Shown: positions 2,534-44,231 of the stretch, piece by piece
Layout: every line of letters begins with the position of its first letter
How positions within the stretch are numbered: position 1 is the first letter of the stretch
NCBI RefSeq assembly: GCF_006345805.1
Contig: NW_021829910.1
Coordinates: 1-44,231, forward strand
DNA: 44,231 nt
Reading direction: 5' to 3'
DNA from: Octopus sinensis
Lineage: Eukaryota
The notes under the pieces: generated by a model
Seen by the model: the letters and a program-made list of their open reading frames with translations, nothing else
Told to the model about the DNA's origin: nothing
The model's database searches: none
Made by a program: the position numbers and the translations under genes

Positions 2534-2724
2534 ATGTTTCGCCACATAGTATCATATAGACGGTCTCTTGTGTTGATACTGTGCACGATATTGTTTTTGG
2601 AGGCTCAAGCTGATTCAGATATATGCAAGATATGTACTTGCAATTCACTTACAACAAAAATAAATTGTGACAATCGCAATCTAGCATCAATTCCACAACC
2701 AATTCCGACGAATGTTGAATATTT
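2534..2724 (+). CDS. First coding exon: signal peptide + LRRNT cap
   Basis: [63 protein letters not shown](L): basic n-region, hydrophobic core, AQA cleavage motif, 4-Cys LRRNT. Acceptor ttcttctttta-cag ends at 2513 (implies an upstream 5'UTR exon); donor TT|gtaagt, phase 2. Confidence 0.92.
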
Positions 2725-5700
2725 GTAAGTATTTGACACTTTCTACGTATTTTCCACTTCCAATATTTTAAATTTTCATTGATTATGTTCTCAGCTAATC
2801 GCTTATGCTGTTTATCTCACAGCTTTAAGCACAATCTTATGTTAGAGTAAAACAAATCGATATGTTACCTGCTGTGAAGTCAAATAAACTGTTTCCTACC
2901 ATATTGAATTTATAATATATAACATCTCATACACAGTGATTGGATCTGACTAGTATCTGACTTTGATGTTATTTGTCTGAACTTATCAAATCTTACGGTA
3001 TATTCAATGAACGGACAGTATAAAAACTTTAGTGCTAAGAAAACGTGTATTCCACATAGTTATATTATATCATTAATTAGTTGAATTGTTGCTTATAGTT
3101 ACAGTAATATAATATAATATCATTTGATCTTGTTACAGAATAATTGTTAATTATTGTTTGTGTTAGTTTTATAATAGAATATGCAGCGAGCTATCAGAAT
3201 CGTTGTGCACGCCAGACAAAATGTTGAGCGGTATTTCGTTCGTCTTTACGTTTCGATTTTAAATTCTCTCGAGGTTGACTTTGCTTTTCATTCTTTTGGA
3301 ATCGGTAAAATAAATAGCAATTTATCTCTGAGATCAACGTAAAGGACTTGTCCCTTTCCCCAAATTTCAGGTTTGTTCCTATAGAAGAAATGATTATTTT
3401 TATAATTAAAAATGATACAGATGGATTAAACTGCAGATAATGACGAGATCTGCTTAAATTGCCAAATTCTTAAAAAAGTGAAGAAATCAAAATAGTGCTG
3501 TTTGAACAAATTATGAGGAATTTATTTTTGATAGAATGTCATCAGTAAAATTTACCCTGTCATGAACACAATAAAACTTATTACAAAATTATGCAAGCTT
3601 AATTGAAGTTTCGGCTGTTTGATGCATCCCCGTTCACCTGAAAACTTACGTAATTTTTAAGTGCATTATTAAAATTTAACGTCTCAAGAAATGGAATAGA
3701 ATAAAAAAGAGTAATTATTTGCTACATGCAATCATAACAAATACTCTGTTGCAACACATTGCTCTTCCAGGTGATTACTTCCAGTTAATTGGCTTGCATC
3801 ATTGCATTAATCACCTTAAACTTTCTGTTTTAATAACATATTCTAATACTAAAGTGGATCAATTCATTCGATCAGATCTATTTCTCAAAAAATTTGGAAC
3901 GTTTTGACCAAATGAGAAATTCCAATGTAAAATAAAGAGAAAAGTTTCAATAATGGAATTCCTAAATTTGGTATAACTCAAGATGTTGAATAGTAAAGTT
4001 GAAGTTCTGTTTAATAAGTTAGATATTCTCATCGTTCACAACTTAAGCGAGGATTGGCACAAATCTGTTGACCGTCTAGTAGAATACATTGCGTTCTGAC
4101 ACACGGCAATCTGACATCAAATCCCGCCAAGGTCAACCTTGCGTCATTTATTTCCGAGATCAATAAAGAACCATAACAGTTCAATGAACAAATGCAACTA
4201 TGAGGACCTCGAATAAGACACCTTGCAGTATATTGTCCAGTTGTCTGTGACCTGAGTTAAAATTCCACACTTTTTATTTTATCGATTTTGGAGAAAGAAT
4301 CAGACAAGTTTTATAACTCCTGCAAGATCTCCAATACTTGTGAGACAGATATCATTAATATTCCGTTTGAGCTGTTTACAGGAATGATGAGCAGGGATGC
4401 TATTTAGGAGATGAAGGATTTAGCATATGTGGTTAATAATGGGAACAAACTGAGATTTAATACAGCAAGAGTAAGGACTAAAAAAAGACCGAAAAACTAA
4501 GGCAATGTATGTTGTCTCATCCCTTTTTTAAATAACACTCTTAACCAGTTAAATCACCATGTAAGGTTGTTCTCCTTTGTAGCACATAACTCAAAATTAA
4601 ATAAGGGTTTCCCCACTCTACCATCACCAGTTCTATTAATAAATCCCTTTCCATTTCTGTTATGCTTTCCTTCCTAGTCTATTATTTCAGTCTTGAAGTT
4701 TTGGGGGTTTATTTATTTTTGTGAAGAACTTTTATGCATCAACTAAGCAAAGGAAAGGAGTTTATTTTGCAAAGGTAAATTACTTTTGACAACAAAGTGT
4801 AATAGCGAATGAAATGCTCATTGGACAGAAACAAGATATTTATAAATAAAGCTGACTTCTGAGATGATAAAAATATCTTCCACTGAATACTGAATACGAA
4901 GGCTTTGTAAATCTAATTCAAATCACAAATATTTTGAACATCCATTATTTTCTCATATTTTACATGCATGTGTGTTTTTCATTCATACTTTACGCAGTGA
5001 CTTAGATCTGTTTTATATCTTATATAATAAACTCCCAGTAAATCGAACAGAACCTTCGTGAAGAAGAAAAGGAAGCCTTACAAACTGAAGAATGACAATT
5101 CAACCATCCTAAAAGAAACCGATTAGGGAAGGGTGATAGCAGTCACGGACCACGACTACTATAAAGATAAAATATTGGAAACAGACCTGCTACTAGGAAA
5201 AACCAAGATACCCGGAAAAAGTAATAATGAATATACTCAAAAGTCTGATAAATGAATACCAATGTTCGTTCACAGATAAAGAGAAAGATTATTTATGCAG
5301 CTCTGTAATGAAAGAGAGTAATTCCTATGGATCACCCAAGATCTACGAATGCTCCAAAATGCAGGAACCAGCAGATAAAAATACTAAGACCTACTGACAT
5401 CAAATTGAGACCAACAGTTGCTGGACCTTGAGCCCCAACACAACAACTGAGCCATCTTTTGGATATACTCCTCAAACCGTTATGCCCATTAATGCCCAGC
5501 TATACCCGAGACGATATGGATTTCCTCAAACACATTCCAGAACGTATTATATCTACAATCTTTGACTAATCTTTATACTAATACATCAGACTTTGGGCCG
5601 GGAAGCAATCAAACACTTGGTAGAAAAGCATAACGGACAGATGGACGAACGCTTCAAAACGCATTTCCAAAGACACACCTGGAACTAGAAGACAACACCT

Positions 5701-41595: not shown

Positions 41596-44231
41596 GTAAG
41601 TGTTATTTATTGTCTAATATAACACCACAAGGTTTATTACAAATTGATAGTTAATAAGAACATTGTATAATAGTTAATAAAAGGGAAATGTTTTGATGTG
41701 TATATATGTGTGTGCAAGTGTAAATGTATGTATATATATATATATATATATATATATATATATATATATATGTATATATACATATACACACATATATATG
41801 TGTATGTGTGTGCGCGTGTGTATGCACATGCGGTCGTGCACACACATACGTATTTGCACGTATATATATATATATATATATATATATAGCGATTAAGGAC
41901 AACTACTTAAGGAAAACTTAACAAGAAATTGTCAGGTAGATAGCGTAAAAACCTCATAAGAGAAAAAATTTCGAAAATAATATTTGTTACTGAACATATT
42001 AATTATATATAATTTATATATATATATAAATTATATATATATATATATATATATATATAATATATATATATATATATATATATAATATATATATATATAT
42101 ATATATTATATATATATATATTATATATATATATATATATATACATATATATATATATATATATCAAAAAGAATTCATAAGAGAAGGGCTAAATATCCTC
42201 TTCAAGAATAGCTTCTTTGTCTTCTAAGACAACTTCTATCATTCTTTGGCATGAAAGTATAGAAAGACTTAAAGGAGTTCAAGCTCTTATAAATGGACTT
42301 GATATAAACATTCAATTTACGATGGTATATAGCCATCACCAACTTCAATTCCTCGACATCCTCTTTACGAATTTCATCATCAAAATACAAACAGATACAT
42401 ACGATAAGCCTACGAACTCGAAGCCATATCTACTGTTTAATTCATGCCAAACCAGACACACTAGAATGAATATCCCCTTCAACCTAGCAAAAGGGATTTG
42501 TACTATAGTCTCTAATACAAACACCAAGGACACACGGCTACATGAACTAAAGGATACACTCCTTACCAGGAACTACCCACAATCACTAATCGATATAGGC
42601 TTTCAATGTGCCCTACAACTCAATATCCACGAACTCAGACATCCCAAGTTAAAGAAGGATTTACAGCCAATATCCTATCATCCATCTCCACATACAACCC
42701 CCTTAACAATGAAGCTCTCGACACAATCCTGCAGAACATTCACCTACGAAAAAGGGATTACAGAATGAAGTTTATCCTCCAAACGTACACCATCATAAAG
42801 GGCAAAAGACAACCAAAATCTATTAAATGTCTCTTAACATAAGCTCAAGTATATTCGAAACCACACTGAAGCCGGCAGGAAAAATTTGCAGAAGACCTGA
42901 CTGTGGTATATGCATTAACCTAACTGAGGGATAGGAATTCTCTTTCAAACATGTAGGGTAGACCAAAAACAGATGGCTAGAAAATATCCATAGCCTCATT
43001 TGGTCATGGTTGAGAATTCAATCAGTAAGTGTATTGGCAGTTGCCTCTGATAGGACCCTATGCAGGAGGTACCTGAGGTACCAGATGTCCTCATGACCCT
43101 CTCAGGAATAATGAGCGTTGAAGATGGTAGATGGATGGATATATACGTTATTAAATATAACGATTTTATGTCCCATTATATTAAGGGAAATTTAATGTTT
43201 TGGTAAACAGTCAAAGGCGTTGGAGAGCATAAATATAAAGTTGTAGCACAGAAAAAGCTGATATGGCAGACTGGAAGCCATCTAAATATTCTTTCCTAAT
43301 CTAGGCACAAGGACCGAAATTTTGGGGAATGGGGCCAGTCGATTAAATCGACCCCAGTACGCTACTGGTATTCCAAAAGGATGAAAGTCAAAGTCGACCT
43401 TGGCGGAATTTGAACTCAGAACGTAAAGACAGACGAAATACTGCTAAGCATTGCACCCGGCTAAAGTTTCTGCCAGCTTGCCGCCTTGGAAGCCATCCAA
43501 ATATTGGAAAAGAGATACCTGGATTCATGATAATTCATGACGTTTACCAAAATGGTAACACTGATGTTGCTGAAATTCCAATGTAGGAGCCGTAGATGTA
43601 GGATAGAAATTCTCTCTTTCTCTATTGCCAAGAAATCTTGAATAACAGTAAATAATGACATACATACATAATACATGCATACATGCATACATACATACAT
43701 ACATACATACATACATACATACATATTACATACATACATAAATATGTGTATATTGGAAAAAGCACAATATTAGTGATCATATTTTTTATTGTTTATCCAA
43801 ATATTGTTTTGCTCACTTCACATTTTATGGCCTTCTTCACATTCTATATGACATTGCAACATAACTTAAATGAGATTCTCAGGTTTCATTAGGGAGTTTC
43901 CACTGCATCAATGGTTGCAACTTACAAATTTCATCCTTTTATTTGACTTGTTCAACGATTTTCACGTGTTTGTTACATCAGAATACTAAAAGAACAACAA
44001 GTGGCTTTCATGCTTCTCTCAATTGAATTTGTGACTTTATTGAAACATTTCCAAATGAACATAAAAATAGGTTTATAGTCTTTGTTAATAATTTGCTTTA
44101 TATGTCTAACATGTATTGATTTCAATACTAACACGTATACATTTTTTTTTACAACATAAAGAAAATATTTCTTGTTATTGCTATGCATTGCATTATTTGG
44201 TTCATAAATACAGATATTTACTTGTATTCTG

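Follow-up and report, generated by a model that had tools for sequence, protein, structure and literature searches.

Domains of the Ly6/uPAR (LU) type occur in series in uPAR and CD177, which are LU-only and held by a glycosylphosphatidylinositol (GPI) anchor, and leucine-rich repeats (LRRs) in one-repeat modules with a variable concave face are found in the lamprey variable lymphocyte receptors (VLRs). The Octopus sinensis gene discussed here, on contig NW_021829910.1 (the whole of it, G000:C6381, 44,231 nt; hereafter the window), has likenesses to both: it carries multiple LU domains in series but is not LU-only, and it has one-repeat LRR modules with concave variability. Somatic assembly as in the VLRs was considered and rejected, there being no sign of it and each LRR being an ordinary spliced exon.

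Closer systems have been described among G protein-coupled receptors of the adhesion type (aGPCRs). The available text of three papers places LU domains in the N-terminal region of adhesion-type seven-transmembrane (7TM) receptors of starfish, molluscs, and arthropods (PMC9410279, PMC11595613, PMC13719153), and LRR-LU-GPS-7TM may already be drawn in Figure 2 of the last, whose legend lists LRR and GPS. One LU is described for the starfish receptors (PMC9410279, PMC11595613), against four in the octopus gene, and in those portions of text none of the three mentions LUs in tandem, an expansion in octopus, a SEA-like module, or paralogues lacking 7TM. Ritschard et al. (2019; PMC6408891) reported an octopus-specific aGPCR expansion, group 3, with LRRs in 5 of 22 sequences. 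Its members share with the present family an octopod expansion, tandem clustering, class B type with GPS and 7TM, and LRRs in part, and we infer that the two are the same; the available text of that paper has no mention of Ly6, truncated, soluble, LU, or SEA forms.

With somewhat better than even confidence, the window is read here as the outer half of an LRR-LU-SEA-GAIN-7TM aGPCR: likely a membrane receptor without HormR, predicted not to cleave itself, whose variable LRR face and first LU fingers would bind a predicted variable surface ligand. The basic architecture is old and partly in print; what appears to be new is the recent four-LU array, together with close paralogues that are 7TM-less or have a non-canonical GPS.

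The window gene and its relatives

Fourteen exons, each with an AG acceptor and a GT donor, join into 1609 nt, or 536 stop-free codons: a first coding exon, six phase-2 exons of 72 nt with one LRR each, an LRRCT exon, and three pairs of 92 and 184 nt (exons A and B) encoding LU repeats (Table 1). The product corresponds to residues 53-588 of RefSeq model P0001 (“protein slit-like, partial”), the exons matching letter for letter, which bears out the exon chain that a sequence-only reading of the window had assembled. As a chance control, the LRR pattern occurs in 6 of 46 plus-strand AG-72 nt-GT windows and in none of 26 on the minus strand; LRRNT is matched by Pfam in the first coding exon at E 6.8e-5, under the curated cut-off. 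The RefSeq model has an extra upstream exon, probably 5' untranslated because the signal-peptide-like stretch comes after Met 2534. Two alternative in-frame acceptors were found: one at 20425/6, 51 nt upstream of the LRRCT exon, which adds 17 amino acids and is present in many paralogue models, and one at 27209, which adds 7 to LU1 exon A and is seen in an RNA-like contig.

Transcription was surveyed in four RNA-like runs from four studies, none of them recorded as RNA, so that this status is a guess; the junction evidence consists of contigs matched at 90% likeness, is family-level, and cannot show absence. Depth over two LU exons is tens to hundreds of times the intron level in three of the four (X1 is flat). 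For the proposed LRR-to-LU junction, 20633 to 27230, support comes at family level from loose ends in X5, X6, and X9, where LRRCT ends are joined to exon A, with no stretch spanning the intron; the LRR-to-LU splicing of the sequence-only reading holds. One X6 contig has the exact last 27 nt of the window LRRCT exon at the in-frame acceptor 21 nt upstream of exon A. A GT-AG junction links exons A and B in X5, and in X6 and X9 exon B continues into SEA exon 1. Summed contig depth in X5 and X6 reaches thousands over window positions 27218-27301 and 29234-29485, a hint of very high expression of some family members in these samples, contig depth being a poor measure.

The earlier identification of the Cys-rich repeat as an LU domain is borne out by sequence profiles, and can be held with moderate confidence. 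Each 92-residue repeat has 12 cysteines and the ending CCxxxxCN, and the Cys pattern aligns in 22 of 23 proteins from octopus to echinoderms. The LU rule, according to the available text of PMC9410279, is four invariant disulfides plus one to three extra; the two extra pairs here would lie in fingers I and III. A profile of 12 exon B copies had five PDB matches, four to three-finger-fold proteins, the matches including ACVR1 (E 0.0046), LYPD1 (E 0.11), and a three-finger toxin-like chain. Pfam UPAR_LY6_2 is found in 9 of the 12 copies (best E 0.002, all under the cut-off), and a Lingula relative passes the Toxin_TOLIP cut-off (21.4 v 21.2) at the equivalent position. Best ESM Atlas scores were 0.75-0.79, one for a SLURP1 cluster, and serve as a lead only. 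Structure prediction, the check originally proposed, did not give a fold: neither single-sequence AlphaFold on P0001 (mean predicted local distance difference test, pLDDT, 42) nor an alignment-based prediction for paralogue P0027 (18 rows) resolved the LU region, where pLDDT is mostly under 50-60 in both, and the latter did not resolve HormR either. The three-finger fold therefore rests on the profiles. Fold searches covered the SEA-like part only; phmmer with P0002 had no PDB match at E<=10, and Foldseek with the P0027 model had none at E<=0.001. LYPD1/Lynx2, LYPD6, and the activin receptors share the Cys spacing and the CCxxxxCN end, but the octopus LU differs in its multi-domain chain, 12 cysteines, and absence of a GPI anchor, and there is no evidence of its binding nicotinic acetylcholine receptors or acting in the Wnt pathway.

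An exon B search returned 31 longer proteins, the named ones all from Octopus. Complete relatives have the layout LRR-LRRCT-LU-X-HormR-GAIN-GPS-7TM, where X is a SEA-like module, and GPS and 7tm_2 are above the Pfam cut-offs in full-length P0012, P0029, and P0030. Over LRRCT-LU the window gene shares 64-70% identity with P0030, and its individual exons share 84-96% with P0012/P0014; by these matches, and by the LU-SEA splice in RNA-like contigs, its ectodomain is homologous to the large modular ectodomain of bona fide aGPCRs. The best PDB matches of the relatives' GAIN-7TM region belong to the vertebrate ADGRG2/G4/G6 group (GPR64/GPR112/GPR126), among them ADGRG2 (E 4e-59) and ADGRG6. The tips of these receptors, which we take to be pentraxin/CUB, differ from the LRR plus LU of the octopus family. 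A SEA-HormR-GAIN stalk is shared with G4 and G6 (PMC13197933, available text). In P0027, module X (residues 136-237) is predicted to adopt a ferredoxin-like fold (pLDDT 60-82), with matches at Z 7-8.7 to ferredoxin-like folds that include MUC16 SEA (Z 7.8) and the Gpr126 ectodomain (Z 7.8, root-mean-square deviation 3.1, 92 residues); it is called SEA-like because the SEA matches are tied with unrelated ferredoxin folds and Pfam SEA has no match to it.

Genome matches number at least 77 for LU exon B (of 80 candidates), 47 for GPS exons (of 58), and 41 for GAIN-A exons (of 53), clustered on C29 and C27; these are not gene counts, since they take in haplotigs and broken copies. An isolated last-7TM exon (G000:C29:1673783-1674238) and an isolated LU exon B with a lost cysteine (G000:C29:2117749-2117937) are apparently stranded family fragments. 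Behind the automated names given to members (slit-like, ADGRG6-like, toll-like receptor 5, decorin-like) stands a single family whose LU domain is unannotated.

A combination of LRRs and multiple LUs had been thought possibly novel and of cephalopod lineage. The cephalopod origin does not hold: LU-bearing GPCRs are in print for starfish, molluscs, and arthropods (PMC11595613, PMC13719153, available text), and a profile search covering 1.8 billion representative sequences found LRR-LU-...-GAIN-7TM in gastropods, bivalves, a brachiopod (Lingula), nemerteans (Tubulanus), an annelid (Lamellibrachia), and three echinoderms, with one 4.2-kb assembled contig encoding the whole layout (P0054). A cephalopod-specific origin was rejected on these grounds, and because of this distribution the architecture is taken as old, its expansion in octopods coming on top. 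A quick tree of the 7TM region was built from 134 rows. In this tree, made without fragments below 215 amino acids and most isoforms and without a clade test, 19 rows including all labelled Octopus receptors form one octopod-specific class B clade (Shimodaira-Hasegawa-like approximate likelihood ratio test, SH-aLRT, 97), nested in a mainly mollusc-brachiopod clade (SH-aLRT 96); the same tree gives no support for grouping the echinoderm LU-bearing receptors, which are separate and without a firm position, with the molluscan ones.

Duplication and divergence of the LU units

The window contig is very probably the other haplotype of a locus on C29 (1871855-1827651, minus strand), because the two are 99.4% identical over the full window length, with equal LU spacing. 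There are 11 exonic differences. The final 40 nt of the window are the sequence of the acceptor preceding exon A3, and the chromosomal copy continues with LU4 and then SEA-like exon 1 (G000:C29:1827648-1819810, minus; the SEA exon itself at 1819914-1819810) before a scaffold gap at 1818141-1818240; this confirms that the window ends inside the acceptor of a fourth LU exon A. RefSeq model P0218 of this copy has four LUs and ends in half a SEA domain; its C-terminal 21 residues, which derive from sequence intronic in a paralogue, were rejected as real. The haplotypes differ in the LRRCT exon by a cluster of amino acid changes (window 20565-20577 v G000:C29:1851408-1851250), and the two versions find their matches in different O. 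vulgaris paralogue models, which suggests gene conversion or an old polymorphism.

Among 230 stored proteins 89 have LUs, 84 of them a single one; the five with more than one all belong to one young clade that includes the window gene. Introns of the units are 95.5-99.7% identical, the exon B copies agree with one another at 98-100%, and the protein sequences of LU2 and LU3 are the same. The four-LU array is, to judge by these identities, very recent. Window unit 2 is closer to chromosomal unit 3 than to chromosomal unit 2, a sign that exchange between units is ongoing. The closest O. vulgaris model, P0014, is single-LU, as far as a gene model can be relied on.

An assembly artefact, or a decaying duplicate, could in principle account for the array: over 5.5 kb, unit 2 matches unit 3 at 98.6% identity, the chromosomal RefSeq model ends in a half SEA domain, and, a point that also weighs against an expressed four-LU receptor, no LU-to-LU (B-to-A) splice is listed in the four runs (8 loose ends are not shown). 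This explanation is nevertheless quite improbable. The unit spacing is equal in two separately assembled contigs (7224/7223 and 4895/4895 nt), with unit-specific differences; a second octopus locus carries three units and a second O. vulgaris model, P0002, two; and both copies are stop-free.

Exon A behaves differently from its surroundings. Its LU1, LU2/3, and LU4 versions differ from one another at 11-13 of 92 nt (LU1 v LU4, 7; LU2 v LU3, 1), with 6-8 non-synonymous v 0-1 synonymous codon changes, mostly in the predicted first finger, while its 300-nt flanks differ by 1-2% (Fisher p 3e-8 to 4e-3 against exon A). Selection on finger I is likely on this pattern, and the array has the look of a mosaic in which older finger variants stayed distinct and the introns were homogenised. 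The LRRs vary in a comparable way: among four sibling exons, identity is 25-75% at the concave codons and 74-79% in the remainder of the exon. In a neighbouring member (G000:C29:2166437 onward, L033-L040), whose single-LRR exons number at least 19 and follow a repeating pattern, non-synonymous and synonymous difference proportions (pN and pS) are 0.47 v 0.31 at concave codons and 0.30 v 0.54 at others. Two observations count against selection: pN/pS is ~1 at the concave sites of the window LRRs (0.51 v 0.45, with only 11 synonymous sites), and because exon A variants are already present in O. vulgaris paralogues (P0014, P0021), homogenisation of introns by gene conversion can mimic positive selection.

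The 3' end of the gene

Close paralogues show two derived endings: no HormR with an R-L-K GPS, or no GAIN/7TM. For the window gene a membrane receptor with GAIN-7TM is the probable outcome, a secreted form is distinctly less likely, and decay or some other fate is improbable. The R-L-K GPS occurs in P0011, P0012, P0014, P0051, and three genomic loci, and H-L-T in most other members; the canonical cleavage site, according to the available text of PMC13197933, is His-Leu/Ile-Ser/Thr, a motif absent from the subtype most likely for the window gene.

The membrane ending is favoured because P0014 shares with the window gene its LRR order, its LU1 finger, and a private one-codon insertion in SEA exon 1, present in the chromosomal copy only among 13 copies extracted from fetched loci; P0014 continues to GAIN, an R-L-K GPS, and the first transmembrane segment (TM1). 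The intron after the chromosomal SEA exon is of the type preceding GAIN in C10617 (89%), and 164 kb downstream, on the same strand, another gap is immediately followed by an orphan 3' half that carries an R-L-K GPS.

Several observations tell against this ending. Introns of this type are found ahead of the terminal exons of 7TM-less genes as well (84-90%). Identity to P0014 is 80-87% for the orphan 3' half v 88-96% for C9912/C8188, and the orphan may come from a different gene. The gene model P0014 stops after TM1 and could be a chimera, paralogues being visibly mosaic (C9912), and the nearest DNA paralogue (96.9% over 11 kb, 5' end), also multi-LU, lacks GAIN/7TM. The 3' end is unassembled, and genome contig searches found no contig bridging either scaffold gap; C5378, C8838, C8188, and C9912 were rejected as bridges, being other genes. 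The C9912 paralogue (55646-103142 of G000:C9912, L061-L066) joins a P0029-type 5' half to a 3' half of the R-L-K GPS type.

If the gene were instead a 7TM-less paralogue, LRR-(LU)4-SEA plus a short terminal exon, its product would be a soluble recognition protein, or a decoy for the membrane receptors, secreted into haemolymph or mucus. All four loci fetched gap-free from LU to terminal exon (C29:2.10-2.116 Mb, C29:972-994 kb, C25, C5) read LU-SEA-HormR-SEA-terminal exon with no GAIN, GPS, or 7TM match, and a fifth is likewise 7TM-less from SEA onward; such models lack a hydrophobic C-terminus and occur in two species, and short LU-SEA-terminal models exist (P0020, P0031). The private SEA codon, however, ties the window gene to P0014 with its GAIN, GPS, and TM1, several of the 7TM-less loci have frameshifts, possibly assembly errors or decay, and their SEA-to-terminal-exon splice is predicted. 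7TM-less models are scattered over divergent branches (P0033 and P0109 from O. bimaculoides; P0104 from O. vulgaris), one with its own SEA duplication, which suggests, on the basis of gene models only, repeated independent loss of GAIN/7TM. Three endings had been offered for the unseen C-terminus: GAIN/7TM is found in relatives, but a GPI anchor or a single transmembrane segment is in no relative examined, and both were rejected, LU4 being followed by a SEA-like exon and 7TM-less relatives having no hydrophobic tail.

The literature searched held no tandem-LU aGPCR array, with or without finger-I divergence, no 7TM-less octopus paralogues, and no R-L-K subtype; for PMC13719153 (figures, supplements) and PMC11431876 (supplement) the search was confined to text.

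Table 1. Features of the window, in window coordinates.
Feature	Position	Strand	Remarks
Upstream exon of RefSeq model	2041..2176	+	probably 5' untranslated region
Coding exon 1: signal-peptide-like hydrophobic stretch and LRRNT	2534..2724	+	splicing; Pfam LRRNT below cut-off
LRR exon 1, 72 nt, phase 2-2	6206..6277	+	
LRR exon 2	6939..7010	+	
LRR exon 3	7775..7846	+	
LRR exon 4	9596..9667	+	
LRR exon 5	10356..10427	+	
LRR exon 6, terminal type	11702..11773	+	
LRRCT exon	20476..20633	+	in run X6, last 27 nt apparently spliced to region of LU exon A
LU1 exon A, predicted finger I	27230..27321	+	alternative acceptor 27209
LU1 exon B, predicted fingers II-III and CCxxxxCN end	29293..29476	+	
LU2 exon A	34455..34546	+	
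LU2 exon B	36517..36700	+	
LU3 exon A	39350..39441	+	
LU3 exon B	41412..41595	+	
LU4 exon A acceptor region	44192..44231	+	cut by contig end
Tandem duplication units, ~7.2 and ~4.9 kb, each an LU exon pair with introns	26350..44231	+	95.5-99.7% intron identity

Repeats surround these exons. Upstream of the gene, at 207-508, lies a 300-nt pair of inverted repeats with 94% identity, of hairpin or MITE-like type (miniature inverted-repeat transposable element). Two long introns hold broken remnants of retrotransposons without long terminal repeats, recognized by RVT_1 matches, at 14100-14696 and 17810-18202 (minus), with others on the plus strand at 23674-24081 and 24995-25402; one remnant has a local duplicate (1.4 kb, 98.6%) and turns up again in the next LU unit, and a short tandem array of ~43-nt units (18154-18570) lies within a retroelement remnant.

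Candidate functions

If the gene does encode a membrane receptor, it would have two variable binding surfaces, the LRR concave face and LU finger I. Unequal crossing-over would have put three different finger-I variants in one chain, and the four LU units would add specificities, avidity, and length, and so reach. The SEA-GAIN region would hand engagement or force on to the 7TM region; with R-L-K at the GPS, autoproteolysis is predicted to be lost, and signalling would go through an intact GAIN. Secreted paralogues could compete for, or coat, the same ligands.

The ligand could be non-self surface material, from microbes or other cells, met at skin, gill, or sucker, an assignment held at slightly under even confidence. 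A recognition role is favoured by the pattern of variation at LRR concave sites and finger I. An “adhesion GPCR G6” protein has been found in O. vulgaris skin mucus (PMC11431876), though the available text does not allow the member to be identified, and group 3 aGPCRs are expressed in octopus nerve cord, suckers, skin, and gills (PMC6408891, available text). The nerve-cord expression fits an adhesion or wiring role too, and to that extent speaks against recognition.

The corresponding alternative, less likely but of some weight, is a neural or epithelial adhesion or wiring molecule with an endogenous partner, its LU array a spacer or a neutral by-product of crossing-over in a repeat-rich cluster. 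In the available text of PMC6408891 group 3 expression is highest in the axial nerve cord of O. bimaculoides, and the authors propose axon guidance; the near identity of exon B between units, and the identity of LU2 and LU3 in protein, also count in its favour, and the LU units hold remnants of long interspersed nuclear elements that could seed mispairing. Against this alternative, the changes cluster at exposed LRR positions and in a single LU loop, almost all of them being non-synonymous, with adjacent introns homogeneous, and frame, splice sites, and cysteines are kept in all four units.

To our knowledge, octopuses are without antibodies, and few diversified surface-recognition families have been characterised in cephalopods. 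The present family, which has two binding surfaces that vary independently and numbers several dozen loci or more, is a candidate recognition repertoire. A bolder and rather speculative extension is that octopuses made a single ancient aGPCR into a fast-shuffling germline repertoire of dozens of genes that combine hypervariable LRR exons with a hypervariable three-finger loop and differ in LU copy number, and whose cleavable, uncleavable, and secreted forms would cooperate (signal plus decoy or opsonin) in recognizing microbes or non-self at skin and gills; if so, the window gene would be the most elaborate LU version among those found here. The variants without cleavage site, HormR, or the whole membrane part also make a ready series for tests of how aGPCR ectodomains signal.

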